From the IMG/VR virus record IMGVR_UViG_3300033233_000007: DNA of 64,000 bases; one strand, given 5' to 3'. Positions within the stretch are counted from its first letter, which is position 1; every line of letters begins with the position of its first letter. Made by a program: the position numbers and the translations under genes. The notes below the pieces were generated by a model, which saw nothing but the letters and a program-made list of their open reading frames with translations, was not told where the DNA came from and did not search any database. This DNA comes from a virus (Duplodnaviria; Heunggongvirae; Uroviricota; Caudoviricetes). Positions 1 to 61,923 of this stretch are shown piece after piece.

Positions 1-494
1 GTGAGACTCTCATCGGGCTTGCGCGCCTTCGTCCTTCGCCTCTTCATGACATCCTCCGTCGCTTTTTGCGTGCTTGATCGCGATCCATTTCTTGCCGAGC
101 GCGAGCATTTGAAAGTCGATGTAGAGCGCCGCCGGCATCGTGATCGTCACGGGTTTGGCGTTGACGACCGTTCGACCTTCCCCTATCCACACCCACTCAG
201 CGGACCTGGGCGCCTTCGTCTTTCGCTTCGTCTTTCGCTTCATCTTCCTCCGTTTCTCTAATCTCTTCTTCCCACGTCGCGCTCTGACTGATGCAGGAGT
301 CGCACGGCTCCCATCGCAGGACGACGCCATAGTTGCCGACGTGCTGGCCGTCCCTGTACAACCGGCACGGCTGCTCGGGGCCCCACACGACATCGCTCTT
401 TTTGTGCTCGTCGAAGCACGGGCTGTCGGCCCGCTCCCATAGCGTGTGATGGTTGCAGAAAAACCAGACCCAGATGCTCTTGACGGTGGACATT

Positions 495-680
495 TTACGC
501 TCCCGCTTTCCTCTGATGCTCGCTCCACTCCTTCAGCTTCACGACCTTGCCGCAGAAACACAAGGCGCGCTTGCCGTCCTTGAGCGGCAGGGCAATGCCG
601 TGGGACCACATGGTCGGTCCGACGATCGCAGACTCGAAGACCGGCCGCTTCGGCGCAGGCGTTTTCGTGGCTTTCTTCAA
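495..680 (-). CDS. small hypothetical protein (61 aa), TTG start
   Basis: ORF preceded by TTTTAGGAGAG RBS. A 50-nt segment is repeated in inverted orientation at 63652-63705. Confidence 0.3.
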   Translation of the reverse strand: MKKATKTPAPKRPVFESAIVGPTMWSHGIALPLKDGKRALCFCGKVVKLKEWSEHQRKAGA

Positions 681-706
681 CGGCGCAATAAGTCTCTCCT
701 AAAATG

Positions 707-944
707 ACCGCGACCCCGACCGCGACCACGACCCCGACCGCGACCACGACCCCGACCGCGACCACGACCGCGACCACGACCGCGACCCCGACCCCGACCA
801 CGACCACGACCCCGACCGCGACCACGACCGCGACCACGACCACGACCCCGACCACGACCACGACCGCGACCACGACCCCGACCCCGACCACGACCACGAC
901 CGCGACCACGACCGCGACCCCGACCGCGACCGCGACCATGACCC
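707..944. repeat. tandem hexanucleotide array (GACCNC)n, about 40 units
   Basis: Direct reading: gaccgcgaccccgaccgcgaccacgacc..., a perfect 6-nt periodicity. Confidence 0.9.
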
Positions 945-29018: not shown

Positions 29019-29311
29019 GCCGCGACCTCGACATGGCTGTGGCGAAAGTCGTCGGCTGGACGTTCCCCGAAGGCGGCCTTGACGAATTCGGCATCGACCC
29101 GCGGACAAGCATGCACAATTTTGTTCCGCTCTACAGCGAGTCCGTCGAGGTGGCTGTCGAGCTTCTGGGCATGTTCCCGTCCTCGGTCACGTCGCCGAAG
29201 AGCAACAGCCCCGAGCAATGGGTCTGTGCCGTCTCCGGCGTCTCCGCTTCAGCGCCCACTTTCGCCGAGGCCGTCGCCCGTGCGGCCGTGGCGGCGTATG
29301 GAAGGAAGTGA
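29015..29311 (+). CDS. hypothetical protein
   Basis: ORF. Confidence 0.3.
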   Translation: MSRDLDMAVAKVVGWTFPEGGLDEFGIDPRTSMHNFVPLYSESVEVAVELLGMFPSSVTSPKSNSPEQWVCAVSGVSASAPTFAEAVARAAVAAYGRK

Positions 29312-29658
29312 TGCACGTCATCGCTTTCGATGTCGACGAGACCCTTCAGGGCTTCCGCGGTCCGGTGACGTTTCAGAGCATCGACGAACTCAGGGCCGCC
29401 GGCCACATCGTCGGCGTCTGCGGTAACTGGATCGCGCTTGTGCGTTCGCTCCCCGAGTGGCATCGCCTTTTCAGCTTCATCGGCCCTATCGGCCAGGTGA
29501 CGCCGGAGACGAAAGCGACGTTTTTGAGGCACTTGAGTACTTGGATTCCCGCTGACGGGTTCGTCATGGTCGGCAACGACCCGCAGGATCGCCGGGCCGC
29601 GGAACTGGCGAATTGGCAGTTCATCGTAGAGGCGGATTTCGCCCGCGGTGTGCGGTAA
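29311..29658 (+). CDS. small HAD-like hydrolase
   Basis: DxDxT motif FDVDETL near the N-terminus. Confidence 0.4.
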   Translation: MHVIAFDVDETLQGFRGPVTFQSIDELRAAGHIVGVCGNWIALVRSLPEWHRLFSFIGPIGQVTPETKATFLRHLSTWIPADGFVMVGNDPQDRRAAELANWQFIVEADFARGVR

Positions 29659-29695
29659 TGCTTGACTCTTTGCTTACAGATTGTACACTGTCGTT

Positions 29696-30898
29696 GTGAA
29701 AGTTCGCTACCGTTTTCGCTTTTACCCATCCGACGAACAGAAATTCGAGCTTGCCCGCGTCTTCGGCGCCTGCCGGTACATCTACAACTGGGCGCTTCGG
29801 ATGCGCACGGACGCCTACTATAAGGACGGCGTCTCCGTCGGGTACTGCGAATCCAGCACCCGGCTCACCGCGCTCAAACGCGATCCCGAACACGCCTGGC
29901 TCAACAAGACTTCCTGCGTTCCCACGCAACAGGCGCTTCGCCACCTCCAGACGGCGTTCGTCAACTTCTTCGAGAAGCGTAGCGCATATCCGAAGTTCAA
30001 GCGTAAGGACGGTGAGCAGTCTGCCGAGTACACAAGGTCCGCGTCCAAGTGGGACGCTAAGAACCGTAACCTCGAACTCTCTGGCCTCGGAAGACTCAAG
30101 GTCCGCTGGTCCCGCAACTTCAAAACTCCTCCGACCACCATCACCGTAACCAAGGACACGGCGGAACGCTACTTCGTCACGCTCTGTCTGGACGAGACGG
30201 TTTTGAAGCTCGAACCCGTTCACAAAGCCGTCGGCATTGACCTCGGCATCATGGCTCTCGCCACCCTTTCCACAGGCGAGAAAATCGAGAATCCGCGGCA
30301 CCTGATCCGTGCCCAAGCCGCGCTCACCCACGCCCAGCGCGATCTGTCCCGTAAGTCCAAAGGATCGAACCGGCGTGCCGCTCAAAAGCTCAAGGTCGCC
30401 AAGCTTCACGCCCACGTCGCCGACGCCAGAGTCGACTACCTGCATAAAATCACCACTGATCTCGTGCGCCGTTTCGACGTGATCGCCGTCGAGAACTTGA
30501 ATGTCCGCGGCATGGTTAAGAACCACAACCTTGCCCGCGCTTTGAGCGACGCGGCCCTCGGCGAGTTCCTGTCGATGATCCGGTACAAGTGCGAATGGTA
30601 CGGACGCGAGCTTCGGACGGTGGACCGTTTCTACCCGTCCACGAAGCGATGCTTCGACTGCGGACACGTTCTGGAGGAACTTGATCTCGGTTGCCGCGTC
30701 TGGACGTGTCCCGAGTGCGGCAAGGAGCATGATCGCGATGTGAACGCCGCGAAGAATATTCTGGCGGCCGGACAGGCCGTGACTGCGCGTGGAGGGAAGG
30801 TAAGACCTAAGCGGGACAGTCACCGCAAGGGCGCATCCCTGAGAAGCGCGAACCATCTTGAAGCTACGCATATAGTTTCAGGAATCCCCGGACTTTAG
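29696..30898 (+). CDS. tnpB: TnpB (IS200/IS605-family OrfB, RuvC-like + zinc finger)
   Basis: N-terminal RYRFYPSDEQ...YNWAL and a C-terminal CFDCGH...WTCPECGKEHDRDVNAAKNI. Confidence 0.8.
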   Translation: MKVRYRFRFYPSDEQKFELARVFGACRYIYNWALRMRTDAYYKDGVSVGYCESSTRLTALKRDPEHAWLNKTSCVPTQQALRHLQTAFVNFFEKRSAYPKFKRKDGEQSAEYTRSASKWDAKNRNLELSGLGRLKVRWSRNFKTPPTTITVTKDTAERYFVTLCLDETVLKLEPVHKAVGIDLGIMALATLSTGEKIENPRHLIRAQAALTHAQRDLSRKSKGSNRRAAQKLKVAKLHAHVADARVDYLHKITTDLVRRFDVIAVENLNVRGMVKNHNLARALSDAALGEFLSMIRYKCEWYGRELRTVDRFYPSTKRCFDCGHVLEELDLGCRVWTCPECGKEHDRDVNAAKNILAAGQAVTARGGKVRPKRDSHRKGASLRSANHLEATHIVSGIPGL

Positions 30899-30909
30899 TC
30901 CGGGGAGGA
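30879..30909 (+). mobile_element. IS605-type right-end hairpin (CCCCGGACTTTAGTCCGGGG) plus GAGGATGTCAA at the 3' end of tnpB; a likely omega-RNA scaffold end
   Basis: Perfect palindrome at the tnpB stop. The same end recurs at 51600-51725. Confidence 0.55.
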
Positions 30910-31034
30910 TGTCAAGCGACGCGCCGCTTCCACCTTCGGCCAGAGCAGGCGTGCGGCCGCACGGACGGCATCAGCGCGGGACACGCAGAGGTCGGCGGCG
31001 TACGCGTCAAGGATCGCCAGCGTCTTTTCGTCGG

Positions 31035-31659
31035 ATGAAGCGCCGTCCCTATCTCAAGCAGTCCCGGTATCTTGGCACCGTGGACCGCATCGATGCCGCC
31101 GCGCAGGCCGCCGACATCCGCTACGCCATTTTTGGCGGCACGGCGGTCAACTGGTATTCTAATCCCCCCGCCGACGATCGATATCGACGTAGCCGTAGAA
31201 CCCGACGAAGAAAGCATATCTGCGTTTATCGCCGAACTCGACCTGCGAGGCATCAGGTCCACAAGCCAAGAAATCCATGACCGGGGGATCGCGACCGTTA
31301 TCCTCGTGGATGGAAAGTCCAAGCTGAAGGTTGAGGTGATGTCCGGCTACGCGCCGAGCCATATCTCCGCCGTCGTTAACGCGGTCCGCGTCCGCGTGGG
31401 CGCCGTCTCGTTTAATCTCGTTACCCCGGAAGACCTGATCGTCAACAAGGCTATGGCCTACTTCGACCGGCATGAGCGCAAGGACATGTGCGCTGTGGTT
31501 GACTTGCTTCGTATCAAGCACGGCAAACTCGACGAGGATCACATGACCTCTCTCATGGGACGGGAGGGTCGCGAGGCCGTATTCCGCACGATCATGAACA
31601 TCGCCAAACGCGGCCTCAGAAAGTCGCCGTTGCTTGACCGCGCAAAGGCGCAGAGGTAG
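31035..31659 (+). pseudogene. nucleotidyltransferase (MNT/AbiEii-like) interrupted by a +1 frame change at a C6 tract (about 31157)
   Basis: Frame A reads ...AIFGGTAVNWYSNPP and frame B reads TIDIDVAVEPDE...; together they reconstruct a GGTA...TIDIDV nucleotidyltransferase motif. It is paralogous to 40449..41087. Confidence 0.5.
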
Positions 31660-34918: not shown

Positions 34919-34993
34919 TAGGCGCGGCTGGATTTGCACCAGCAAGCCGCCCGGTTTAAGCAGGCGAGGTATACTAATTCCCGTCACGCGCCC
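34919..34993 (-). tRNA. tRNA, anticodon UAA (Leu-type anticodon, class I structure, weak D-arm)
   Basis: Hand-folded cloverleaf. Acceptor GGGCGCG/CGCGCCT, anticodon arm GCCUG-CUUAAAC-CGGGC, T-arm GCUGG-UGCAAAU-CCAGC. Confidence 0.35.
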
Positions 34994-34995
34994 GT

Positions 34996-35071
34996 TGGTA
35001 TCCCCGCCCGGAGTCGCGCCGGGTTCTGCGCCTTCGGAGGGCGCCGTGTTTCTATCGTACACCACGGGGAC
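34996..35071 (-). tRNA. tRNA-Arg(CCG)
   Basis: Hand-folded cloverleaf. Acceptor GUCCCCG...CGGGGAU-A-CCA, anticodon loop CUCCGAA. Confidence 0.55.
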
Positions 35072-35125
35072 GCTCTTAAAGAAAACGGCCGTTTCCTTTA
35101 AGAGCGTTTCGAGCTTTCAAAGAGC

Positions 35126-35201
35126 GTTTGAAAAATGGTATCCCCGCGTGGACTCGGACCACGACTTCCGCCTTCGTAGGGCGGCGCTCTGTCCAATTGA
35201 G
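35126..35201 (-). tRNA. tRNA-Arg(ACG)
   Basis: Canonical cloverleaf. D-arm GCUCAAUUGGACAGAGC, anticodon loop CUACGAA, CCA encoded. Confidence 0.75.
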
Positions 35202-35232
35202 CTACGGGGACATCGTACTGTCAAAGAGCGAA

Positions 35233-35308
35233 TGGAACCCTCGGCGGGAGTTGCACCCGCATGATCCCGTTTAGGAAACGGGTGCCTCTTCTTTTCGGCC
35301 ATGAGGGC
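35233..35308 (-). tRNA. tRNA-Arg(CCU) (weak; overlaps the 3' end of the HNH ORF)
   Basis: Acceptor has one mismatch. Anticodon arm CCCGU-UUCCUAA-ACGGG, T-arm GCGGG-UGCAACU-CCCGC. Confidence 0.35.
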
Positions 35309-35897
35309 CATGGTTTCCAAAGAACGTACCTCCGGCGGCCCAGTTCCCAAACAGTCCAAGTTTTCGTGCTGCACGCATTCCGCCAACTACTTTAAGCCAC
35401 GCCTTGTACGGCATATCGCGCCGTGTCCAATTGCATCTGATGCAAGCGGGAACGACGTTGTCGCGGACGTGGCCCTTGGTATTGTCGATGCGATCAAGTG
35501 AAATCTTCATGTCTGATGGCGTTGCCCCACAATAAACGCATCCGCGTGAGATTGAGTCGCGCACAAAATCTCTGGTCAAGTCGAACAGAAGTCCTCGTTT
35601 TCTGTCTTCATCTCTAGCATCCTTCATTATGAGGAAGTCGCGATTTATGCCGAGACGTCTCCATCTCCTGAGTTTGGCTTTGTACTTAGCTTGTTTCCGG
35701 GTATAGGCTACCGGCGACGTTCGCCGCTTCCCCCGTAAGGTGTTGTCGCACGCCTTACATCGTGTTCGAGGCCACCGTTTTCCGTTCACAATTCGCTCGT
35801 AGAACATGTCTACTGGCTTGGGCCTCTTACACAACGTACAGCGTTTATGGTCGGACATAGTTCCGACCATAGTAGTGAACGGTGGTGGGGACTTCAA
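35271..35897 (-). CDS. HNH homing endonuclease inserted in the tRNA array
   Basis: HNH core CVYCG...ISLDRIDNTKGHVRDNVVPACIRCN. Start probably MVGTMSDHK. Confidence 0.7.
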   Translation of the reverse strand: MKSPPPFTTMVGTMSDHKRCTLCKRPKPVDMFYERIVNGKRWPRTRCKACDNTLRGKRRTSPVAYTRKQAKYKAKLRRWRRLGINRDFLIMKDARDEDRKRGLLFDLTRDFVRDSISRGCVYCGATPSDMKISLDRIDNTKGHVRDNVVPACIRCNWTRRDMPYKAWLKVVGGMRAARKLGLFGNWAAGGTFFGNHGPHGRKEEAPVS

Positions 35898-35919
35898 GGA
35901 ATTTGACCTTGAAGTCCCC
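35887..35919. repeat. 13-bp-stem hairpin GGGGACTTCAAGG-aatttga-CCTTGAAGTCCCC
   Basis: Direct reading. It lies between tRNA-Pro(CGG) and the HNH start. Confidence 0.8.
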
Positions 35920-35920
35920 G

Positions 35921-35994
35921 TCGGAGTCTCCGGACGTGCGCCGGGCCTATGCCTGTTCCCGAAACAGGTGGGGCGCTATCTCCCCATGACTCCG
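35921..35994 (-). tRNA. tRNA-Pro(CGG) (non-canonical T-loop)
   Basis: Acceptor CGGAGUC/GACUCCG, D-stem GGGG/CCCC, anticodon loop UUCGGGA. Confidence 0.45.
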
Positions 35995-36003
35995 GTCAAA
36001 GAA

Positions 36004-36074
36004 TCGGCCCGCCGGGATTCGCACCCGGATCAAGCTCTTATAAAGAGCCCGTTCTACTGTTGAACTACGAGCCG
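36004..36074 (-). tRNA. tRNA, anticodon UAU (Ile-type)
   Basis: Hand-folded cloverleaf. D-arm GUUCAACAGUAGAAC, anticodon loop UUUAUAA, T-arm CCGGG-UGCGAAU-CCCGG. Confidence 0.5.
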
Positions 36075-36075
36075 A

Positions 36076-36151
36076 TGGTCAGGGCGGCGGGACTCGCACC
36101 CGCGGTCTCCACGTCCCAAGCGTGGCGCGTTGGCTGCTACGCTACGCCCTG
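36076..36151 (-). tRNA. tRNA-Pro(UGG)
   Basis: Full cloverleaf. Anticodon arm CCACG-CUUGGGA-CGUGG, CCA encoded. Confidence 0.7.
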
Positions 36152-36152
36152 A

Positions 36153-36239
36153 TGGTGCGCTTGAGAGGATTTGCACCTCCACGAGTTTTACCTCACCGGC
36201 CCCTCAAGCCGGCGCGTCTGCTGGTTCCGCCACAGGCGC
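36153..36239 (-). tRNA. tRNA-Leu(GAG) (class II, long variable arm)
   Basis: Anticodon arm CCGGC-UUGAGGG-GCCGG with a 14-nt variable arm. CCA encoded. Confidence 0.6.
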
Positions 36240-36244
36240 GAAAT

Positions 36245-36330
36245 TGGTGGGCCCGAGAGGGTTTGCACCTCTACGCTTATTAGGCACCGGCTTCTGAGAC
36301 CGGCGTGTCTGCTAATTCCACCACGGGCCC
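36245..36330 (-). tRNA. tRNA-Leu(CAG) (class II)
   Basis: Anticodon loop CUCAGAA with a long variable arm. Acceptor GGGCCCG/CGGGCCC. Confidence 0.6.
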
Positions 36331-36331
36331 G

Positions 36332-36405
36332 TGCCCTCGACAGGATTCGCACCTGCATGCCGACGCTTTTGAGGCGTCGAGGTCTTCTAGTTGCCTCACG
36401 AGGGC
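36332..36405 (-). tRNA. tRNA, anticodon CAA (Leu-type anticodon but class I structure)
   Basis: Acceptor GCCCUCG/CGAGGGC is perfect. Anticodon arm GACGC-CUCAAAA-GCGUC, T-arm GCAGG-UGCGAAU-CCUGU. Confidence 0.4.
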
Positions 36406-36441
36406 GTGAGAATCTGTTTCTCAAAGAACGATCCGACTCCA

Positions 36442-36516
36442 TGGTGGCCCCGCTGGGACTCGCACCCAGGTCTCCTGCTTAAGAGGCAGGCCGTCTAGCT
36501 GCTGACATACGAGGCC
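36442..36516 (-). tRNA. tRNA-Lys(CUU)
   Basis: Anticodon arm CCUGC-CUCUUAA-GCAGG, T-arm CUGGG-UGCGAGU-CCCAG. CCA encoded. Confidence 0.65.
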
Positions 36517-36520
36517 GTCA

Positions 36521-36595
36521 TGGGGTCGGCGGGAATCGAACCCGCGTGAAGCTCGGTTAAAAGCCGAGTGCAAAGCCAGCGTTTGCTACGACCCC
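36521..36595 (-). tRNA. tRNA-Lys(UUU)
   Basis: Acceptor GGGGUCG/CGACCCC. Anticodon arm CUCGG-CUUUUAA-CCGAG, T-loop UUCGAUU. Confidence 0.6.
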
Positions 36596-36636
36596 TTGGA
36601 TTTGCCGTCGCGTTTCAAGCGACACCTCCTGAAAAA

Positions 36637-36710
36637 TGGCAGCCCGCCGCGGATTCGCACCGCGATCCTGACTTTGAAAAAGTCATATCCTGCTCTTAGA
36701 CGAGCGGGCC
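36637..36710 (-). tRNA. tRNA-Glu(UUC)
   Basis: Anticodon arm UGACU-UUUUCAA-AGUCA, T-arm CGCGG-UGCGAAU-CCGCG. CCA encoded. Confidence 0.6.
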
Positions 36711-36866
36711 ATCAGTGGGCGTAGCGGGGGAGCATCTTGCGCATACTCATCGGGAACCTGACCCTACTCTGGGCGGGTCTTTGCCAGCTAACCGCTTACC
36801 CTCGGGAGGCTTGGCCCGATCCCTTTGCGCCAGTGCTGGCAGCCCCCGCGCTTCGCCCACTAAAAT
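36711..36866 (-). ncRNA. about 150-nt structured non-tRNA element closed by long-range helices (GTGGGCG/CGCCCAC and GGGGG/CCCCC)
   Basis: No ORF and no cloverleaf could be built. Complementary termini at 36714-36735 and 36842-36862. Strand is assumed from the surrounding tRNAs. Confidence 0.3.
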
Positions 36867-36941
36867 TGGTACCCCGAAGGAGAGTCGAACTCCCGTTTTC
36901 GCCTTGAGAGGGCGGTGTCCTGGCCGCTAGACGACCGGGGC
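36867..36941 (-). tRNA. tRNA-Glu(CUC)
   Basis: Anticodon arm CCGCC-CUCUCAA-GGCGA, T-arm GGGAG-UUCGACU-CUCCU. CCA encoded. Confidence 0.6.
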
Positions 36942-36942
36942 A

Positions 36943-37017
36943 TGGAACCCACGGAGGGAATTGCACCCTCATGACCGATTTAGAGGATCGGCGTCCTGTC
37001 TGTTGAACGACGTGGGC
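36943..37017 (-). tRNA. tRNA-Arg(UCU) (C33 in the loop)
   Basis: Anticodon arm CCGAU-CCUCUAA-AUCGG, D-stem GUUC/GGAC. CCA encoded. Confidence 0.5.
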
Positions 37018-37018
37018 A

Positions 37019-37097
37019 TGGCTCCGGCGGCAGGAGTCGGACCTGCGACTGCCCGCTTAACAGGCGGGTACCTCAAACCGACAGAGGCATCACCGGA
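37019..37097 (-). tRNA. tRNA-Asn(GUU)
   Basis: Anticodon arm CCCGC-CUGUUAA-GCGGG, T-arm GCAGG-UCCGACU-CCUGC, with a long D-loop. Confidence 0.55.
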
Positions 37098-37098
37098 G

Positions 37099-37172
37099 TG
37101 GAGCCGCCGACCCGAATTGCACGGGCATCTGAACTTTACGAAAGTTCTGTTCTGCTGTTGAACTACAGCGGC
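37099..37172 (-). tRNA. tRNA-Thr(CGU)
   Basis: Anticodon arm GAACU-UUCGUAA-AGUUC, D-arm GUUCAACAGCAGAAC. CCA encoded. Confidence 0.6.
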
Positions 37173-37173
37173 A

Positions 37174-37250
37174 TGGAGGCCGCGGCGTGACTTCCACACG
37201 CTACATCCGCCTTTGCAGGGCGGCGCTTCGTATACTTTGGCTTCGCGGCC
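37174..37250 (-). tRNA. tRNA-Cys(GCA) (weak D-arm)
   Basis: Acceptor GGCCGCG/CGCGGCC. Anticodon arm CCGCC-CUGCAAA-GGCGG. Confidence 0.5.
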
Positions 37251-37271
37251 GTGAATCGGCAGATGGATGGA

Positions 37272-37363
37272 TGGCGGAAGGTGAGGGAGTTGCACCCCCG
37301 TCGCCCTTGCGAGGCGCACGGTTTAGCGGACCGTCCCGGCGAACTGTCATCCGGCTACCTTCC
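37272..37363 (-). tRNA. tRNA-Ser(GCU) (class II)
   Basis: Acceptor GGAAGGU/ACCUUCC. Anticodon arm ACGGU-CCGCUAA-ACCGU with an 18-nt variable arm. Confidence 0.6.
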
Positions 37364-37364
37364 G

Positions 37365-37450
37365 TGGGGGAGGGCAACGGAATTGCACCGTCACGCGAGA
37401 TGCGCGGTCCAGTTTTCGAGACTGGTTGGGCACTGCGCCCACTGCCCTCC
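37365..37450 (-). tRNA. tRNA-Ser(CGA) (class II)
   Basis: Anticodon arm CCAGU-CUCGAAA-ACUGG with a 16-nt variable arm. D-stem UGGG/CCCA. Confidence 0.6.
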
Positions 37451-37458
37451 GTGAAATT

Positions 37459-37532
37459 TGGTCCCGGCGGGTGGAGTCTCACCACCGTTTCATCTTCATG
37501 AGGGATGCGTCTTGATCTTAGACCACACCGGG
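37459..37532 (-). tRNA. tRNA-Met(CAU), elongator-type
   Basis: Anticodon loop CUCAUGA, T-arm GGUGG-UGAGACU-CCACC. CCA encoded. Confidence 0.55.
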
Positions 37533-37533
37533 A

Positions 37534-37608
37534 TGGAGCCGCCGGTCCGAGTTGCACGGACATGAACCTGTTTACAGGACAGGGGCCTTGCTGTTAGGCG
37601 ACGGCGGC
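37534..37608 (-). tRNA. tRNA-Thr(UGU)
   Basis: Acceptor GCCGCCG perfect. Anticodon arm CCUGU-CCUGUAA-ACAGG, T-arm GUCCG-UGCAACU-CGGAC. Confidence 0.6.
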
Positions 37609-37645
37609 AAAAAAAACGCCGGTGTTCTACTATTGAACTACACCG
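37609..37645 (-). terminator. truncated tRNA 5' half (acceptor + D-arm) forming a hairpin followed by T8; possible intrinsic terminator
   Basis: Minus strand reads CGGUGUAGUUCAAUAGUAGAACACCGGCG then UUUUUUUU. No anticodon arm, T-arm or 3' acceptor strand is present. Confidence 0.35.
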
Positions 37646-37766
37646 TGGAAAACGGTTGACCGGACTACGCGCGCTACGCCGGGTCGTTTTCTCGTGCGGA
37701 GGGTACTGCCCCCTCGTCTCCGGCTCTCACGGCGTCGTTTAATCCGACGCCATGAGAGAAGGAGAA

Positions 37767-37840
37767 TGGGGCCGCCAGCGGGTACTGCCCCCGCGCTTCG
37801 ATCTTACCAAGATCGCGGACTGCTTTTATCCTATGGCGGC
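37767..37840 (-). tRNA. tRNA-Thr(GGU) with atypical T-loop GGCAGUA
   Basis: Acceptor GCCGCCA/UGGCGGC. Anticodon arm CGAUC-UUGGUAA-GAUCG, T-arm GCGGG-GGCAGUA-CCCGC. CCA encoded. Confidence 0.4.
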
Positions 37841-37841
37841 A

Positions 37842-37916
37842 TGGTCCTCGCTGAGGGAATCGCACCCCCGTCCCGTGGGTGTAGGCCACGTGTTCTGGCT
37901 GCTGAACTAAGCGAGG
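37842..37916 (-). tRNA. tRNA-Val(UAC)
   Basis: Acceptor CCUCGCU perfect. Anticodon arm CGUGG-CCUACAC-CCACG, D-arm GUUCAGCAGCCAGAAC. Confidence 0.6.
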
Positions 37917-37917
37917 A

Positions 37918-37991
37918 TGGTCCTCGGCCGAGGAGTCGCGCCTCGGTTTCCAGCGTGTCATGCTGGCGTCCTCCTGTTGAACGAGCCGAGG
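37918..37991 (-). tRNA. tRNA-Val(GAC)
   Basis: Anticodon arm CCAGC-AUGACAC-GCUGG, T-arm CGAGG-CGCGACU-CCUCG. Confidence 0.6.
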
Positions 37992-37992
37992 A

Positions 37993-38070
37993 TGGTCGGG
38001 GTGACAGGGCTTGCACCTGCGGCCTCCAGCGCCCCACGCTGGCGCTCATCACTATCTGAGCTACACCCCG
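37993..38070 (-). tRNA. tRNA-Pro(GGG)
   Basis: Acceptor CGGGGUG perfect. D-arm GCUC...GAGC, anticodon arm CCAGC-GUGGGGC-GCUGG. Confidence 0.6.
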
Positions 38071-38071
38071 A

Positions 38072-38145
38072 TGGGGTGATCGCCCGGATTTGCACCGGGA
38101 CTGACAGGGCCACGGCCTGCCGTGCTTCTGTTACACCACGATCAC
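38072..38145 (-). tRNA. tRNA-His(GUG)
   Basis: Acceptor GUGAUCG perfect. Anticodon arm GCAGG-CCGUGGC-CCUGU, T-arm CCCGG-UGCAAAU-CCGGG. Confidence 0.5.
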
Positions 38146-38151
38146 GAAGAT

Positions 38152-38226
38152 TGGTCCGCCCGGTTGGAGTTGCACCAAACATCAGCCGCTTATCGGGCGG
38201 CCGTTCTACTGTTGAACTACGAGCGG
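38152..38226 (-). tRNA. tRNA-Ile(GAU)
   Basis: Anticodon arm GCCGC-CCGAUAA-GCGGC, D-arm GUUCAACAGUAGAAC. Confidence 0.55.
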
Positions 38227-38227
38227 A

Positions 38228-38301
38228 TGGACCGGCCAGCGGGTACTGCCCCCGCGCTTTCGCCTTGGCAAAGCGACAGACTTCTACTATCCGATGGCCG
38301 G
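38228..38301 (-). tRNA. tRNA-Gly(GCC) with atypical T-loop GGCAGUA
   Basis: Acceptor CCGGCCA/UGGCCGG. Anticodon arm UCGCU-UUGCCAA-GGCGA, T-arm GCGGG-GGCAGUA-CCCGC. Confidence 0.4.
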
Positions 38302-38302
38302 T

Positions 38303-38377
38303 TGGCTGGCCCGGAAGGATTCGCACCTTCACCGCGACGTTCAGAGCGTCGAATGCTGCGTGTTACACCACGAGCCA
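38303..38377 (-). tRNA. tRNA-Gln(CUG)
   Basis: Anticodon arm CGACG-CUCUGAA-CGUCG, T-arm GAAGG-UGCGAAU-CCUUC. Confidence 0.6.
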
Positions 38378-38378
38378 G

Positions 38379-38461
38379 TGGTGGGCGCGTACGGAATCGA
38401 ACCGCCTAGTCTTCGACAACGGGTTTACAACCCGCCTCCGATCCCACTCGGCAGCGCGCCC
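38379..38461 (-). tRNA. tRNA-Tyr(GUA) (class II)
   Basis: Acceptor GGGCGCG perfect. Anticodon arm GCGGG-UUGUAAA-CCCGU with a 12-nt variable arm. Confidence 0.55.
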
Positions 38462-39099
38462 TAGCGTGCTTTGTACGATCGATGCTTCTTTGAACGCTCG
38501 ACCATGCGCTCGACGTACCGGATCATTTTCCGCGGCGTGACGGCCGACGTGCGGTAGGCCCAGCGCCCTTCTGAAAGCGCCATGTGCCGCGTTGAGTGGT
38601 GCAGGTGGCAGACCCACTCGAGGTTCTTCGGCCTATTGTCGTCCTCGTTGCCGTTAATGTGATGGACCACAAGAAGGCTCGGGACTTTGATCTTGCAACT
38701 GACGCATCGGAGCTTTCGGCTGTTGTACTTGATCGCGCGGTTGCGAATGCTGGCGGTAGCCGCGCGCCCCTTGCCCCGGCCCCAGTTCCGCGGTCGCGCT
38801 ACGATGATGCCGCTGTCGAGCTTTTGCGCTTTGTGCCGGCACTCGCGGCTGCAGACGGGGGCGCCCTTGAGCGAATTTATGTAGCGCGGCGTGATTTCGA
38901 AGGGCTTGTCGCAGACCTCGCACCAGACGCGCATGCGCTTTCTGGAGAGTTTGTTACGGCATTCAAACGAACAGGCCTTTCGCTTCTTGTCGAACGCGGG
39001 GAAGACGAACTTTTCCTTACAGGCCCCGCAACGTCTCTCGACGCAGAGCCGCTTCTGGCCGTCGAAAGTCCGGGTCATGAACGGGCGCCGCCTGAGCAC
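38461..39099 (-). CDS. HNH endonuclease with N-terminal zinc fingers, inside the tRNA array
   Basis: HNH core VVHHINGNEDDNRPKNLEWVCHLHH, with multiple CxxC pairs. Confidence 0.65.
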   Translation of the reverse strand: MLRRRPFMTRTFDGQKRLCVERRCGACKEKFVFPAFDKKRKACSFECRNKLSRKRMRVWCEVCDKPFEITPRYINSLKGAPVCSRECRHKAQKLDSGIIVARPRNWGRGKGRAATASIRNRAIKYNSRKLRCVSCKIKVPSLLVVHHINGNEDDNRPKNLEWVCHLHHSTRHMALSEGRWAYRTSAVTPRKMIRYVERMVERSKKHRSYKAR

Positions 39100-39214
39100 G
39101 AGGGGATCGTACGCGGAAGTTAAGGGAAGTCAAGAGGATGGTGGACCCGCGGGGATGCGCGCCCCGATTTTCACGATGCCATCGTGATGTCCTCCTGGTT
39201 GGACGACGGGCCCA

Positions 39215-39288
39215 TGGTGGACGCGGAGGGAATCGCACCCTCATTTTCGCATTGCGAAAGCGACGGTCTCCTGTTGACCTACGCGCCC
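39215..39288 (-). tRNA. tRNA-Ala(CGC)
   Basis: Acceptor has the G3:U70 Ala identity pair. Anticodon loop UUCGCAA, T-arm GAGGG-UGCGAUU-CCCUC. Confidence 0.5.
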
Positions 39289-39289
39289 A

Positions 39290-39364
39290 TGGCCGGCGCG
39301 GCTGGTAACGCTCCAGCATCTCCTCCTCTTCAGGGAGGCGCTCAAACTTCTGAGCTACGCGCCG
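39290..39364 (-). tRNA. tRNA-Phe(GAA)
   Basis: Acceptor CGGCGCG perfect. D-arm GCUC...GAGC, anticodon arm CCUCC-CUGAAGA-GGAGG. Confidence 0.6.
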
Positions 39365-39372
39365 GTGAAAGA

Positions 39373-39446
39373 TGGTTCCGGGAGAAGGATTTACACCTTC
39401 GTCTTCTGATTCAAAGTCAGAAATCCTATTACTAGACGATCCCGGA
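39373..39446 (-). tRNA. tRNA-Gln(UUG)
   Basis: Anticodon arm UCUGA-CUUUGAA-UCAGA, T-arm GAAGG-UGUAAAU-CCUUC. Confidence 0.55.
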
Positions 39447-42920: not shown

Positions 42921-43055
42921 GTGAAGATTGAAATAACGAAGCTGACGTGCCTGCGGTGCAAGCACGAGTGGCATCCGCGAAAGCTGGCCGTCCCTGTGCG
43001 CTGCGGGAAGTGCGGGAGCCCGTACTGGAACAGACCGAGGATCAAAAGGCGATGA
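42921..43055 (+). CDS. zinc-ribbon mini-protein (44 aa), paralog of 40312..40452
   Basis: Protein VKIEITKLTCLRCKHEWHPRKLAVPVRCGKCGSPYWNRPRIKRR. ATGA overlap with the next gene. Confidence 0.5.
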   Translation: MKIEITKLTCLRCKHEWHPRKLAVPVRCGKCGSPYWNRPRIKRR

Positions 43056-43516
43056 AACGCAAGATCAGACGCGACAGCGAGATCATTTCCATGATGGCCG
43101 ATGAAGTCGTCAGTCTGCTTCGTGCGGCGCTGTTGGCTTCGAAAATCGAAGACCGCCGATGGCTTCGCTCCGTTCTTCAAGACCTTTCCGATGCGCAGGA
43201 CGACTTATCGGAAGCCGCAAGGCGCTGGTCGCGTGGCATACCTATTGTAAGAAATCCTATCGACGCTCCAGAGTCTCCCGGCGAGTTCATCTCCGTCGCC
43301 AAGGACCTTGTGAAGGTGGCGGAAATCTATAAAGATCAGCATGAGATTTTCCGCAGAAGAGTCGGCCAGAAAGAAGCTGACATCTGGCTTCGTAAGTGGA
43401 AGAAGGCCGAACACGCGGCCCGTGACGCCGTTTTGACGGCTTATCGTGAGCACGTGTCGCACGGATGGCATTGGCCGTCTCGGCTGGATACGACTTTCGC
43501 GGCTTATCTGCGGTAG
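43052..43516 (+). CDS. hypothetical helical protein (154 aa) with a C-terminal Rx4H (HEPN-like) motif
   Basis: ORF coupled to the zinc-ribbon gene. REHVSH near the C-terminus. Confidence 0.4.
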   Translation: MKRKIRRDSEIISMMADEVVSLLRAALLASKIEDRRWLRSVLQDLSDAQDDLSEAARRWSRGIPIVRNPIDAPESPGEFISVAKDLVKVAEIYKDQHEIFRRRVGQKEADIWLRKWKKAEHAARDAVLTAYREHVSHGWHWPSRLDTTFAAYLR

Positions 43517-43626: not shown

Positions 43627-44772
43627 ATGCCCGACATCAGCCCCCACATCACGGTCAACAAGGACGACGTTCATAGCTTCGTCATCGATTCGATCCTGCT
43701 TGAGAATGTACGCACGGAAAAGCTCGTCTTCGCTGCGCACTGGAACGCGTCCATGAAAAACGGCGGCGACAAATTCCATCAAGCGTGTGAAATTGCGCGC
43801 AAGATCGGAACTCCGCGTTTCGTCGGGACGCACGGCAATTACGCGGACGGGCTCGTCCTGCGCGACCAGTCCGTCGTGAAGCTCTGGATCGGAAAGAAGC
43901 TCGACGTTGAAGTTTGGGCCAAGACGCAGGAAGATGCTACGAAAGAGGTACAGGCAATCCGAAAGATTGTCGAGCCCTATCTCATCACCCCTGAAAACGA
44001 GTCCGGGATCAGCGTGACCTTCTGGAACTCGAACACGAAGGGAGATGTCAAGCAGAACGAGCGCATCATCGCGTGTCCTTCATGGCAGGAAATCCGCGAG
44101 AACTACGGCTCTTCCGTCCAACCGGACATCGAGTCTCTGGTGGCAATGAAAAAGCCGTGGGAGGCCGGGAAGATCATTTTCTGGTCTGGGCCGCCGGGCA
44201 GCGGGAAAACTTTTGGAATTCGTTCTCTAATTCGTGAGTGGCACGGCGTTGTTGAACCGAACTACATCATGGACCCGGAGACGTTCTTCAGCGACGCGCA
44301 GTATATGAGCGAGGCCGTGATGACGACGAGCAATAAGTTTGACGAGGATGGGGATAGCAAGCCGTCGACGGCCGGCAAACTCTTCATCATCGAGGACATG
44401 CCCGATCTCATCCTGACGAAAACTCGCCTGACCCGTTGCGCCGAAATGGCCCGACTCCTGAACCTCTCCGACGGCTTTATCGGCCAGGGTTTTAACGCCA
44501 TCTTCCTCCTGACGACGAACGAGGACGTCCACGACGTCGACCCTGCGTTTCTCCGCGATGGCCGCATCCTTCAGCAGACAGCGTTCACGAAGTTCAACAT
44601 GTCGGCAGCGAAGGCGTGGCTCGGCAATCGCGGGATCGCCGCTGACCGCGCCGACGCCGCCATCTGCGGAGAGATGACGCTGGCCGAGCTTTACGCGGTG
44701 CTGCGGGGCAAGAGGCCCAAGTCCCATGTGAAAGACCGCAAGGTCGGCTTTGCCGTGGAGAAATCGTCATGA
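43627..44772 (+). CDS. AAA+ ATPase
   Basis: Walker A GPPGSGKT, Walker B LFIIEDMPD and sensor LLTTNE. Confidence 0.75.
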   Translation: MPDISPHITVNKDDVHSFVIDSILLENVRTEKLVFAAHWNASMKNGGDKFHQACEIARKIGTPRFVGTHGNYADGLVLRDQSVVKLWIGKKLDVEVWAKTQEDATKEVQAIRKIVEPYLITPENESGISVTFWNSNTKGDVKQNERIIACPSWQEIRENYGSSVQPDIESLVAMKKPWEAGKIIFWSGPPGSGKTFGIRSLIREWHGVVEPNYIMDPETFFSDAQYMSEAVMTTSNKFDEDGDSKPSTAGKLFIIEDMPDLILTKTRLTRCAEMARLLNLSDGFIGQGFNAIFLLTTNEDVHDVDPAFLRDGRILQQTAFTKFNMSAAKAWLGNRGIAADRADAAICGEMTLAELYAVLRGKRPKSHVKDRKVGFAVEKSS

Positions 44773-44782
44773 ACCGCTTGGA

Positions 44783-45916
44783 CTAAAGCCCCGCGGCTTG
44801 TTTCTGAACATGAGGACTCGAAACCATAGGCTCCATGACGAGAGCCCTCTCCGGGCAGGCTTGCCTCCTGGAGATCGTCTGCGCGGCATTGAAGTCCGCG
44901 GCCAGACGATAGCCGCAGACGGCGCACGTAAAGTGCGCCCCGCTTCGAGAAGATTTGTCCACGACGCCACACTTCGAGCACTCACGGCTCGTGTTCTTGG
45001 CGGCCACGGACACGACTTCGACACCGGCCAAAGCCGCCTTGTAACGGATCATCGTCTCAAGCTCGGAAAAGGCCCATGCGTTGATCCTCCGATTCCACGT
45101 CTTGCTGAACCGCTTGAGGCGATCCCGAATGCCCTTGAGGTCCTCCAGTTTGATGACGGCCCTCTTTTTAGTCGCCTCGTCAACGATGGCCTTGCTGATC
45201 CGATGGTTCTCGTTCCGCATCCAACGATGCTCCCTTCCCGACAGCCGTTTCAAGAGGCGCCTAGCGCTTCTTGTGCCTATGGACTGGAGCTTCGCCCTGC
45301 GGGACGCGAACCTCTCACGGACGTGCATGACCTTTCGACCGGAATGGAATTTCCCCGCGGACGTGACGGCAATGTTATAGACGCCCCTATCGACGCCGAT
45401 GGCGCAGATGGGATGCGACCGCTGGCCTGGATCGTCTTCGACGACGATATGGATGTACCACTTGCGATCTCCATAGACAAGCTTGGCGGCGGTGGGTCTC
45501 TTCCCGCGAAGATTGTCGCGCTGGTACGTTCCGAGGACGAGAGGAACGTGGACGCGGCCGTTGACCGTCGTCAGGGATACCGCCTCTTCGTTCTCACGGT
45601 AGGTGAAGATTCGCTCATCGTAATCGACGCTCGTGGGCCTGAACTTCTTGACGGTCCTGTCCTTGCGTTTCACGGCTTTGATCGCCCATGCGACGCGGGC
45701 GATGGCGCGAATGGCGAGATTAGCGGAAAGGTTGAACTGTTTGCGGATATCGTGGTAGACGAGGTGCTGAAGTTTGACCTTGTTCGAAGTTTTCTCACGG
45801 ACAGCGACCTCAAGGATGACGTCGCACGCGGCGGCAAACTTCGTGAGCGTGTCCTTGAGGGCGTCGGAGACAGTGGGGGCGGGGTCCATTTTGCAGATGA
45901 TTGTTCGCTGTTGCAT
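44783..45916 (-). CDS. tnpB: TnpB (IS1341/IS605-family OrfB), second copy, distinct from 29696..30898
   Basis: N-terminal MQQRTIICKMDPAPT and a C-terminal CSKCG...CAVCGYRLAADFNAAQTI. Confidence 0.75.
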   Translation of the reverse strand: MQQRTIICKMDPAPTVSDALKDTLTKFAAACDVILEVAVREKTSNKVKLQHLVYHDIRKQFNLSANLAIRAIARVAWAIKAVKRKDRTVKKFRPTSVDYDERIFTYRENEEAVSLTTVNGRVHVPLVLGTYQRDNLRGKRPTAAKLVYGDRKWYIHIVVEDDPGQRSHPICAIGVDRGVYNIAVTSAGKFHSGRKVMHVRERFASRRAKLQSIGTRSARRLLKRLSGREHRWMRNENHRISKAIVDEATKKRAVIKLEDLKGIRDRLKRFSKTWNRRINAWAFSELETMIRYKAALAGVEVVSVAAKNTSRECSKCGVVDKSSRSGAHFTCAVCGYRLAADFNAAQTISRRQACPERALVMEPMVSSPHVQKQAAGL

Positions 45917-46243
45917 GACGAATATAATATCACATACGTCTTGAATGTCAAGGAGGGCGACGCTTCTTCCGTTCGGGCTGAAGCCCGGCGGCATCCGCGT
46001 CGCAAGAATTGGTGAAGTTTGTCAGACTCGTTCTGAGCCCATGGGGCGTCGAACTGGCGGGCGCTCTGTGCCTTCTGGCCGCGGGCTTCGAATTCATGGG
46101 ATCGTGGGCTTCGCCAGATCAGTTCACCCGCGCTATGAACTTGGCGGGCTATGGATCGATGCTAATTCTGACCGCATACGTTGAGCGGGACCTGCTCAAA
46201 GGTGTAAACTCCCGTTCGTGCGAAACCGAAAAAGGAGAGGCAT

Positions 46244-51109: not shown

Positions 51110-51445
51110 GTGAGCATGAGTTCGCCTACGGCGTCCACGAGCACGTGGCCTTTCGAGTACCACGCGCGCACGTCGGACTGCGCGGGTACAGCCACGTCCT
51201 TTGACGCCTTCAGAGGATGGTGCTGCCTGTCGTGTCATGAGCCCACTTGCGTCCCGGCCGGTACGTCGAGCACTCGAGGCTACCACTCACGCTTTGTCGC
51301 AGGGCCGATTCAGAAGGAAGAAGAGCCGCCGCATCCGCCGCCGTGGGTCCGCGAGCACGCTACGCCGTACCGTCCGGCGCTTCACGCGATCAAGATCGTC
51401 AGGCGCCCGGAGTTCCATGCCAGGAGCAACCCGAGATGCCGTTGA
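51110..51445 (+). CDS. hypothetical Cys-rich protein
   Basis: ORF. Confidence 0.3.
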   Translation: MSMSSPTASTSTWPFEYHARTSDCAGTATSFDAFRGWCCLSCHEPTCVPAGTSSTRGYHSRFVAGPIQKEEEPPHPPPWVREHATPYRPALHAIKIVRRPEFHARSNPRCR

Positions 51446-51624
51446 AAGAGATCGGCGAGTACAGGGACTTCAGGCGCCCGAGCGTTACGACGCTTGAGCC
51501 GCCTGCGGGTCCTGCATGCCCGCGATGTGAGATGCCGACGCATCTTGATTCCGAAAAGACGTGGACGGTACACACGGCCTGGTACTGCCCGATGTGCTGT
51601 CGCTGGTGGGAGGAGACGAGTTGA
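51436..51624 (+). CDS. hypothetical zinc-ribbon protein
   Basis: ORF with CPRC...CPMCC. Confidence 0.35.
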   Translation: MPLKEIGEYRDFRRPSVTTLEPPAGPACPRCEMPTHLDSEKTWTVHTAWYCPMCCRWWEETS

Positions 51625-51725
51625 CATCCTCTCCGGACTGAATTCCGGGGATTCCCGAAGCCATATGAACGACTTCAAGATGGTTCACGCTTCTCAGGGA
51701 CGCGCCTTTGCGGACACGGGTCCGC
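51600..51725 (-). mobile_element. orphan IS605-family right end (3' tnpB fragment + hairpin + GAGGATGTCAA), roughly 85% identical to the right end of tnpB-1
   Basis: The revcomp aligns with 30780-30909, ending with hairpin CCCCGGAATTCAGTCCGGAG then GAGGATGTCAAC. No intact tnpB is attached. Confidence 0.5.
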
Positions 51726-51958
51726 TCGGGTCTTACCGTCCCTCCACGCGCCTGAATTCCGGCGTGTCCCGCCGTACCGTGGAAGTCTTGGTTATCGACG
51801 TTCCAAAACGTGGAGGTTTTACGTTCCCGCATTCGGGAACAACTCCATGCCTCATTTTCAGAGAGCGCGCCCATGCTAATTGACGCGAGCTTCGAAGTCA
51901 ACGGGAACACCGCGATTCCTCTGCTGCCTGAAGGCGGCGGTTTCCTCACGGAGGGCCG

Positions 51959-52225
51959 ATGAGCGGCGTGAAGCTTAAGCCGGAGCATTACCGACTCGGT
52001 CGCGTGCTCAACGAAGGTCTTGTCGGTCTCGATCATTGGCGTTACGGCAGAGCCCTTTGGACGCGTGTCAAGACGCGTGGTCATGCCAAGCGGTGCGTCG
52101 TGTGCGCAAAGGACTTTCCGAAGAAGACGGTGATGTACTCGCCGGCGACGTACGGGCTCAACCGCTTTCATCGAATCTGCGAGCCGTGCATGGCGAAGAT
52201 CGTTTCCGGGGAGAAGCTGAAATGA
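51959..52225 (+). CDS. hypothetical zinc-finger protein
   Basis: ORF. Confidence 0.35.
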   Translation: MSGVKLKPEHYRLGRVLNEGLVGLDHWRYGRALWTRVKTRGHAKRCVVCAKDFPKKTVMYSPATYGLNRFHRICEPCMAKIVSGEKLK

Positions 52226-61651: not shown

Positions 61652-61779
61652 ATGGACCGCAACGAATCGCTTTACAACTGGGCTCTTCGGGAGCCGATGG
61701 CGCTTTTGGTGCCGTCGTGGCAAGGCGGCGTAAACTACCGTCGCCTGAAGGCAATGGTTTCTGCGCGGAAGACTTTATG
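61651..61779 (+). CDS. hypothetical mini-protein
   Basis: ORF. Confidence 0.25.
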
Positions 61780-61923
61780 AGATGGATCGGCGATCAATGG
61801 CGCACCCTCCCGCGCCCGCGCCTGATGTGGGCGATTGCGAACGTCGCTGCCATCGCGCTCGCGTTTCCCTTGATAGTGTTCATGGTCGTCTGTGAGCGTC
61901 TGATTCCGGCGAGGAAACCGTAA
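61776..61923 (+). CDS. hypothetical TM mini-protein
   Basis: ORF with an ATGA overlap. Confidence 0.3.

Follow-up and report, generated by a model that had tools for sequence, protein, structure and literature searches.

ISDra2 from Deinococcus radiodurans has TTGAT as its transposon-adjacent motif (TAM). Elements with tnpB only are assigned to the IS1341 group because this group is defined by the absence of tnpA in cis. Such tnpA-less elements, with hairpins at the left and right ends, have been described for ISGst of Geobacillus stearothermophilus, where they would be mobilized in trans, together with gene-less copies (palindrome-associated transposable elements, PATEs) encoding an omega-RNA that a TnpB from another locus can use (Meers et al., 2023; PMC10055086). 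TnpB has been noted as frequent in phages (PMC12607003) and has been studied in cyanophage A-1(L). Here, we analyze a stretch of 64,000 nucleotides (the window) from IMG/VR virus record IMGVR_UViG_3300033233_000007, which carries two tnpB genes, as parts of element #1 and element #2, and a gene-less mini element. We consider it probable that these are three derivatives of IS200/IS605 TnpB-only (IS1341-group) elements, residing as ordinary selfish elements in a large phage genome. Each of them has an omega-RNA scaffold at its right end, with 16-20 nt of phage DNA just outside serving as guide. The third, gene-less copy, which has its own omega-RNA and guide, was overlooked by the first-pass annotation of this sequence.

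Gene tnpB#1 (29696-30898, plus strand; GTG start codon, with an alternative TTG at 29681) codes for a 400-aa TnpB of the ISDra2 type. The protein scores above the curated Pfam cut-offs for HTH_OrfB_IS605, OrfB_IS605, and Cas12f1-like_TNB, so that the TnpB gene annotated at these coordinates is borne out by its open reading frame (ORF) and by three Pfam domains. Residues 6-388 align to the solved ISDra2 TnpB (PDB 8bf8/8exa) with an E value of 6e-68. According to this alignment, the RuvC triad D182/E266/D348 is equivalent to D191/E278/D361 of ISDra2, and both CxxC pairs of the zinc ribbon (CxxC...CxxC) are present. Of 24 family members, all have D182 and E266, and at least 90% have D348. Compared to five relatives, the ratio of nonsynonymous to synonymous substitution rates (dN/dS) is 0.10-0.13 with saturated dS, which indicates that tnpB#1 has been under purifying selection (dN/dS around 0.1). 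ORFs of 416 and 421 aa are found antisense to the two tnpB genes (29621-30871, minus strand; 44750-46015, plus strand). They have the codon-position GC pattern of a non-coding frame and are probably artefacts of the high GC content. A preprint on cyanophage tnpB claims an expressed antisense ORF opposite tnpB.

The 3' end of tnpB#1 is embedded in a palindrome, CCCCGGAC-TTTA-GTCCGGGG, at 30886-30905, which has the TAG stop codon (30896-30898) in its loop and is directly followed by AGGATGTCAA (30906-30915). The right end of element #1 is at 30915, with the terminus ...GGAGGATGTCAA. In relatives with 73-79% protein sequence identity (L006-L008, L089-L091, L093), nucleotide similarity extends past the stop codon and ceases exactly after GGAGGATGTCAA, the flanks being unrelated. 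A terminus of the form GGAAUCC-hairpin-GGAGGA(U/A)GUCAA was encountered at 30+ loci (Chloroflexota, Actinomycetota, and others) downstream of genes for TnpB homologs, with different DNA after each; the flanks diverge at once after GTCAA. It is this loss of homology in 30+ loci which defines the right-end boundary.

A consensus fold was obtained from 28 aligned right ends. Compensatory changes occur in 22 of its 26 pairs, and the terminal hairpin as well as four further helices covary. Paired cells amount to 93.6% (70% in shuffles, 44-50% with slid partners), and the covariation score is 0.60, compared to about 0.10 in slid controls. A covariance model for this family (family 1; model R1), which was built from 26 relatives with the window sequences left out, finds exactly two sites in the window, at 30759-30915 on the plus strand (138 bits, E 1.5e-35) and at 51621-51780 on the minus strand (106.8 bits, E 3e-27). 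The first of these is the omega-RNA scaffold of element #1 as delineated by covariance model, covariation, and homology boundary. It shares the final 140 nt of tnpB#1, extends for another 17 nt, and includes the terminal hairpin (30886-30905); the single-sequence fold of the region has z = -4.6. The boundary, the covariation, and the independent covariance model thus indicate that the right-end hairpin of element #1 belongs to a genuine omega-RNA scaffold, as its 3' stem. The palindrome and its tail had been annotated as the region from which omega-RNAs are made, and this is corroborated by a conserved scaffold which reaches up to the transposon right end and by the 138 bits obtained in the covariance search that had been proposed for the 3' ends.

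Element #1 had been described as having an intact right-end hairpin. The element is intact at its right end, including hairpin and scaffold, but not at its left end, as is evident from a profile scan, from alignments, and from a native protein C-terminus encoded directly upstream. The left end of six relatives is composed of T(T/C)CAT (L006, TCTAT), ca. 11 nt, GCGGAAAC, a hairpin of 7 bp that has TTYAG as its loop, AGGAAGCGCCGCCTCC, and a TTGAC -35 box. The window is devoid of everything upstream of the -35 box of element #1, the TAM and the left-end hairpin (about 57 nt in relatives) being gone. The left-end profile has no match at 29600-29700; the same profile detects both the element #2 left end and that of the mini element. 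Only a short leader and the promoter-like TTGACT-16-TACACT (29662-29689) remain of the left end of element #1 (29659-29695, plus strand).

The left flank is a HAD-like phage gene with an FDVDETL motif (29311-29658, plus strand), which is located outside element #1. Its stop codon at 29658 abuts the -35 box of the element, just 37 nt being left up to the start of tnpB#1. There are 152 homologs, and for many of these the alignment extends through residue 115 up to the C-terminus of the homolog. The conserved C-terminus of this family, WRFIxExDFAxGxR-stop, is kept whole in the window gene, and the same gene end occurs in a related fragment, L129. The sequence TTCAT at 29621-29625 was considered as TAM of element #1 followed by a degenerate left end, but was rejected because the next 33 nt encode the native C-terminus of the HAD-like protein. 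It was also dismissed as a vestigial TAM, with the left-end profile being empty there as well. Directly after the end of the HAD-like gene, L129 has the promoter of its next phage gene, TCCTTGACA-N17-TATAAT; the window reads TGCTTGACT-N16-TACACT-tnpB at this place. The junction falls within 8 nt, T(G/C)CTTGAC, common to the native phage promoter and the -35 box of the element, which leads us to infer a microhomology-mediated deletion by which at least one phage gene was lost along with the TAM and the left-end hairpin. Due to the loss of TAM and left-end hairpin, element #1 is fixed in place and no longer excisable by TnpA. While element #2 and the mini element have subterminal hairpins at both ends, element #1 has one at its right end only, which makes it a truncated derivative rather than a complete member of the IS200/IS605 family.

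The right end of element #1 cuts into the 3' end of a gene for a ribbon-helix-helix (RHH, CopG-like) protein, of which a remnant persists at 30916-31033 (minus strand). This comprises 39 codons (SSDEKTLAILDAYAADLCVSRADAVRAAARLLWPKVEAARR), the first ca. 9 codons and the start codon being lost, and shows 72% identity to an intact RHH protein of 62 aa encoded on L129/L130, which come from runs ERR13950643/44; the L129 protein scores above the Pfam RHH_1 cut-off. Homology to the L129 gene ends at the right end of element #1 and, on the other side, at 31033. The guide segment of omega-RNA #1, GCGACGCGCCGCTTCCACCT (30916-30935, plus strand), is located directly 3' of the right end and is antisense to the RHH remnant. 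The uninterrupted RHH gene of L129 reads ...GGTTCAC|GCGACGCCCCGCTTCTATTT..., with the TAM-like pentamer TTCAC right before the guide-homologous sequence, and this site is identical to guide #1 at 16 of 20 positions. As judged from this alignment, the L129 RHH site is a homologous vacant IS605-family target, and it independently confirms the right-end boundary of element #1. A search for other vacant sites via RHH homologs in a 5.8-billion-protein collection returned only L129/L130.

L129, a fragment of 2.4 kb, has the gene order HAD, g153, element #2 type, RHH, g125; the HAD-like gene and window gene 43052-43426 both have counterparts there. The L129 copy of the element #2 type shows 83% nucleotide sequence identity over 1,250 nt and is located between the RHH gene and another gene, unlike the position of element #2 in the window. 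The phages represented by L129 and by the window are related but rearranged; no parsimonious path from the L129 order to the window order could be drawn from a 2.4-kb fragment. The fact that the RHH site is vacant in L129, and that the element #2 type is found elsewhere there, indicates that both element types moved within this phage lineage.

Two further observations were made beside the RHH remnant. A gene starting with ATG at 31034 (MKRRPYLKQSRYLGTVDRIDAAAQAADIRYAIFGGTAVNWYSNPP...) runs on in another frame as ...TIDIDVAVEPDEE..., where an ORF at 31072-31659 (plus strand) shows a weak Pfam match to the DUF2204 nucleotidyltransferases. This suggests a frameshift at a C-run (ca. 31160-31170), caused either by a sequencing error or by the gene being a pseudogene. 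Also, GGATGAAGCGCCGTCC at 31028-31053 (plus strand) resembles the inner transposon left end GGGGATGAAGCGCCGCCTCC (left-end profile, E 1e-3) and is located exactly where homology to the L129 RHH gene ends. It may be the vestige of a second, deleted left end, or may be due to chance.

Element #2 is complete, with left end, tnpB#2, 3' RNA scaffold, and right end (46011->44766, minus strand, as are all its features). Its TAM is TTCAC (46016-46012; NTCAC in relatives), and the left end with its hairpin (46011-45944) is recognized by the left-end profile with an E value of 3e-8. A promoter-like site, TTGACA...TATTAT, is present. The coding sequence of tnpB#2 (45916-44783) has Pfam matches to OrfB_IS605 and TNB which exceed the cut-offs. 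The right end, ...GGTTCATGAC, is at 44766, as deduced from relatives L123-L130, and is adjoined by the guide segment GATTTCTCCACGGCAAAGCC (44746-44765). The guide runs antisense to the final codons of a gene encoding an AAA-ATPase (43627-44772), the stop codon of which lies inside the right end. A BLASTn comparison of element #2 with L129 covers 46015-44766, where the match stops. In L123-L130, the left end consists of NTCAC, about 11 nt, GGACGGCGCGGAAGCCCC-hairpin-GGGGAGGAAGCGCCGCCTC, and TTGAT, and the right ends are ...hairpin-GGGGT(A/C)GTTGAC or ...GGTTCATGAC. NTCAC directly precedes the left end at five independent sites: L123, L124 (=L125/L126), L127, L128, and L129 (=L130).

TnpB#2 is 26% identical to TnpB#1 over the RuvC half, with the D/E/D residues aligned, and its nearest solved structures are of the Cas12f type (E 1e-22). 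A second, divergent tnpB gene had been annotated at 44783-45916 on the minus strand, and the Pfam matches and the low identity agree with this. Compensatory changes in the 3' RNA of element #2 were found in 15 of 42 pairs (6 sequences); the window copy and L129 both are devoid of one small hairpin. Model R1 has no match at the 3' end of tnpB#2, and the element #2 RNA is of another family than omega-RNA #1. The left-end architecture is almost identical in the two families despite the very different TnpB proteins. The hairpin common to left and right ends reads CCCCGNC-TTYAG-GNCGGGG. Mutated RuvC triads in both copies and a lack of conserved RNA structure had been named in advance as what would refute the annotation; we found the triad intact in both proteins, and the RNA structures conserved. 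In L124, an insertion of the element #2 type is located directly 3' of a tRNA-Lys(UUU) gene (L124:2839-2912), with the 3' end of the tRNA abutting the TAM. Upstream of this insertion (L124:323-2821), eight successive genes for proteins of 77-87 aa are called at regular spacing.

A tblastn relic led to the mini element, which is PATE-like, has a length of 338 bp (51958->51621, minus strand), and belongs to the family of element #1. Its TAM CTCAT (51963-51959) includes the reverse complement of the ATG of a plus-strand gene (51959-52225). Then follow the left end with its hairpin (51958-51895; family-1 profile, E 1e-7), the promoter-like TTGACT-17-TAGCAT (51901-51873), which was detected by a promoter scan, and the omega-RNA scaffold (51780-51621), which is 82% identical to that of element #1. 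Between promoter and scaffold is a relic of the CPECG zinc-ribbon codons. The right end, assigned from the sequence, is ...AGAGGATGTCAA at 51621, and the guide is CTCGTCTCCTCCCACCAGCG (51601-51620), which differs from guide #1. It is antisense to the 3' end of ORF 51247-51624 (plus strand), and the right end of the mini element supplies the stop codon of this ORF. A weak sequence resembling a left end, CTCAT AAAGTCTTCCGCGCAGAAAC CATTGCC TTCAG GCGACGG, was noticed at 61738-61782 (minus strand; profile E 6e-4; hairpin part of the covariance model, 9 bits). It overlaps a small ORF (61652-61780, plus strand) which has a good ribosome-binding site and happens to contain YNWALR. This may be a decayed solo left end or may have arisen by chance.

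The family-1 TAM is TCAT/CTCAT before the mini element and before five of six relatives, and TCTAT in L006. Insertion occurred directly 3' of the TAM, which is TCAC for element #2 and TCAT for the mini element. Neither of the tnpB genes is accompanied by tnpA, as had been annotated along with an IS1341-like classification, and a tblastn search with the Y1 TnpA of L008 did not detect such a gene anywhere in the window (best E 0.05). In some loci of this clade, which represent autonomous relatives (L001, L011), a Y1 TnpA is encoded adjacently. The window also has no further tnpB genes and no CRISPR array, and spaced direct repeats are absent within several kb of either tnpB. L006, L007, and L008, the loci with the closest relatives of TnpB#1, each have two to three different tnpB genes within 9 kb and many small unannotated ORFs; L008 also has genes for a Y1 TnpA, an HNH protein, and a methyltransferase. 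This suggests that they represent other TnpB-rich phage-like genomes.

In the window, each of the three guides matches only its own flank. In IMG/VR, exact 16-mers of the guides have 47, 6, and 18 matches, and there are 48 matches to the TAM plus a 12-nt seed. In the latter, about 2.3 of the following 8 nt agree on average; the 16-mer matches behave alike and show no extension. A partial TAM was found for one of the 71 16-mer matches (L133:4646-4665, IMGVR_UViG_3300006846_000256), which has GTCAT followed by 16 nt of guide #1; the next bases mismatch, and about 0.2 such cases are expected by chance. The IMG/VR matches thus look like chance. The first-pass annotation had proposed that the nucleases could target competing elements and that guide matches should be looked for in host or phage genomes. 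This idea received no direct support: the guides are the DNA beside the right ends of the elements themselves. As the matches do not extend and, apart from the GTCAT case, the correct TAM is absent, these comparisons provide no evidence for guides acquired against a host or a rival element.

The window is accepted as being part of a large uncultured phage genome. Matches to PHROG families include a phage-type DNA polymerase, helicase, primase, and large terminase. Between the two tnpB-carrying elements is a dense block of 28 tRNA genes with many anticodons (34919-39446, minus strand), which is typical of large phages. According to protein-cluster metadata, both TnpB proteins are assigned to a JGI contig of 125,798 bp. 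At Rfam gathering thresholds, only tRNAs were detected in the window. A megablast comparison with the INPHARED phages gave no nucleotide match, and a search of IMG/VR for related phages with the flanking genes found none. A 12/18-nt tandem repeat, GACCGCGACCAC, with about 19 copies (706-937), is located within ORF 10-939 (minus strand).

Under the reading of ordinary selfish elements, the mechanism would follow the established TnpB model (Karvelis 2021; Meers 2023). TnpB#1 would be transcribed from the retained promoter and would bind the omega-RNA cut from the 3' end of its own mRNA. The omega-RNA of the mini element would be made from the mini element's own promoter and, with a scaffold that is 82% identical, could plausibly be used by TnpB#1, which probably also binds it in trans. 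The complex of TnpB and omega-RNA would cut sister or co-infecting genomes which still have the TAM and the target (the vacant allele), and repair of the break from the occupied copy would copy the element back. In this way, the elements would be retained and would spread by homing during replication or co-infection. To transpose, element #2 and the mini element would depend on a Y1 TnpA, which might come from the unseen half of the contig, from the host, or from a co-infecting element. The homologous vacant site in L129 is the sole indication of phage-against-phage action, and it would fit ordinary TnpB homing rather than a defence or offence system. Nothing shows that the elements are aimed at the host or at unrelated phages.

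Several points weigh against this reading. Expression, cleavage, and homing of the elements are predictions from sequence. The family-1 TAM is based on seven flanks only, and as no TnpA was found in the window, the elements may not be mobile at present. The terminal hairpin of element #2 has an internal mismatch in the window, and that of the mini element carries mismatches as well. Because dS is saturated, the selection signal of tnpB#1 dates from before the left-end deletion and is no proof that the gene functions now. The L129 site has 4 mismatches to the 20 positions of guide #1, one of them at position 8, and is preceded by TTCAC instead of the TTCAT/CTCAT seen in six of seven family-1 left-end flanks. 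L129 itself would thus probably not be cut.

Some of these features could be taken to mean that element #1 is a dead relic, immobilized, decaying, and passively carried, with no activity that matters. The left end with the TAM is deleted, the targeted RHH gene is itself a pseudogene remnant, tnpA was not found in the window, and the apparent frameshift in the neighbouring gene suggests a decaying region. We nevertheless consider this unlikely, as the ORF of 400 codons is uninterrupted with every catalytic and zinc-binding residue kept, the promoter-like site is retained, and the omega-RNA, with its 138 bits, scores as high as genuine family members; the left end is not needed for nuclease activity. 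The same intactness might point in the opposite direction: the phage may have domesticated the immobilized TnpB#1, which would be fully functional and transcribed along with the phage genes, as an RNA-guided homing or exclusion nuclease with two guides, one from its own 3' end and one from the mini element 21 kb away, which would cut co-infecting relatives devoid of the insertions. TnpB#1 is immobilized yet intact, is co-directional with the flanking plus-strand genes and joined to them at the promoter, and has a second compatible omega-RNA with a different guide elsewhere in the genome, and a relative exists with a vacant, TAM-flanked homologous site. If true, the inheritance of surrounding phage genes would be biased, as an RNA-guided equivalent of the marker exclusion by T-even homing endonucleases. 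All this is indistinguishable from ordinary selfish homing, with guides which are simply flanking DNA; a vacant allele with the exact target was found neither among the IMG/VR guide matches nor among the RHH homologs, and loss of the left end could be recent and neutral. Domestication thus appears improbable to us.

Even less can be said in favour of two other explanations. The zero nucleotide match to deposited phages and the lack of the contig in IMG/VR might be taken to indicate a segment of a bacterial chromosome or a chimeric assembly, so that "phage-borne" would be wrong. We regard this as very improbable in view of the matches to phage-type DNA polymerase, helicase, primase, and terminase, of the block of 28 tRNA genes together with dense small unknown ORFs, and of a GC content (ca. 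60%) which is uniform in the window and shows no shift across all three elements. That the proteins are nuclease-dead, TldR-like RNA-guided repressors of phage or host genes would be conceivable inasmuch as TldR genes occur in prophages, according to one report (PMC10705468). The D-E-D triad and a full-length C-terminus are, however, present in both proteins, and the guides point to the 3' ends of genes rather than to promoters, which makes this possibility close to negligible.

Under the preferred reading of ordinary selfish elements, the locus shows the full life cycle of an IS605-family TnpB in one phage, with a complete copy (element #2), a stranded copy (element #1), and a gene-less RNA carrier (the mini element). 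It is of interest for these three copy types in one phage, for the common left-end design of two distant TnpB clades, and for the vacant site in a relative. This makes it a reasonable natural test case for TnpB homing between co-infecting phages and for reprogramming of a TnpB in trans by the omega-RNA of a PATE. The two compact pairs of nuclease and guide scaffold, with predicted TAMs TTCAT and TTCAC, are candidate editors. Beyond documentation the significance is small, as similar nuclease-scaffold pairs are already known in large numbers.

With respect to known RNAs, the last ca. 45 nt of the consensus of Rfam family HgcC (RF00062), CCCGnnnUUuAnnnCGGGGAGGAgGUCAg, correspond to the same hairpin-plus-tail motif as 30886-30915, and family Transposase-2 (RF03015) has GAAGCGCGAACC and a hairpin in common with omega-RNA #1. 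At 26.4 bits for HgcC (gathering threshold 50) and 19.2 bits for Transposase-2 (gathering threshold 42.7), omega-RNA #1 is below membership in both. The upstream helices of these families are unlike those of omega-RNA #1, only the 3' hairpin-tail motif being common. For TnpB#2, the closest solved structures are Cas12f/TnpB-like (PDB 9nzq, 8j12, 7wju), the similarity covering the RuvC and zinc-ribbon half. Unlike Cas12f, TnpB#2 has no nearby CRISPR array and is flanked by transposon ends and a TAM, which is why we assign it, on the basis of this context, as a TnpB and not as a Cas12f.

Phage-borne TnpB proteins are on record from Gifsy-1 (GipA), Mycobacterium phage Llij, Klebsiella phage ZCKp20p, and cyanophage A-1(L). 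Of 50,697 deposited phage records, 426 contain TnpB homologs of this clade, among them Gifsy-1 GipA and that of Mycobacterium phage Llij, and all of these homologs are less than 60% identical (best, 52.7%). The available portions of the phage TnpB reports do not describe a left-end-deleted copy together with a second guide borne by a PATE. TnpB#1 is most similar to ISDra2 in its end-to-end alignment, and in both the omega-RNA overlaps the 3' end of tnpB up to the right end and takes its guide from the flank. The TAM 5' of the left end is likewise similar in form and has 5 nt, being TTCAT in the relatives of TnpB#1. Unlike ISDra2, element #1 is devoid of tnpA, has lost its left end, has a TAM deduced from seven flanks, and is located in a phage. 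Element #2 and the mini element match the IS1341-group elements and the PATEs, respectively, of Geobacillus (PMC10055086). They differ from the ISGst elements in that two TnpB clades with 26% sequence identity have nearly the same left-end architecture, all in one phage genome.

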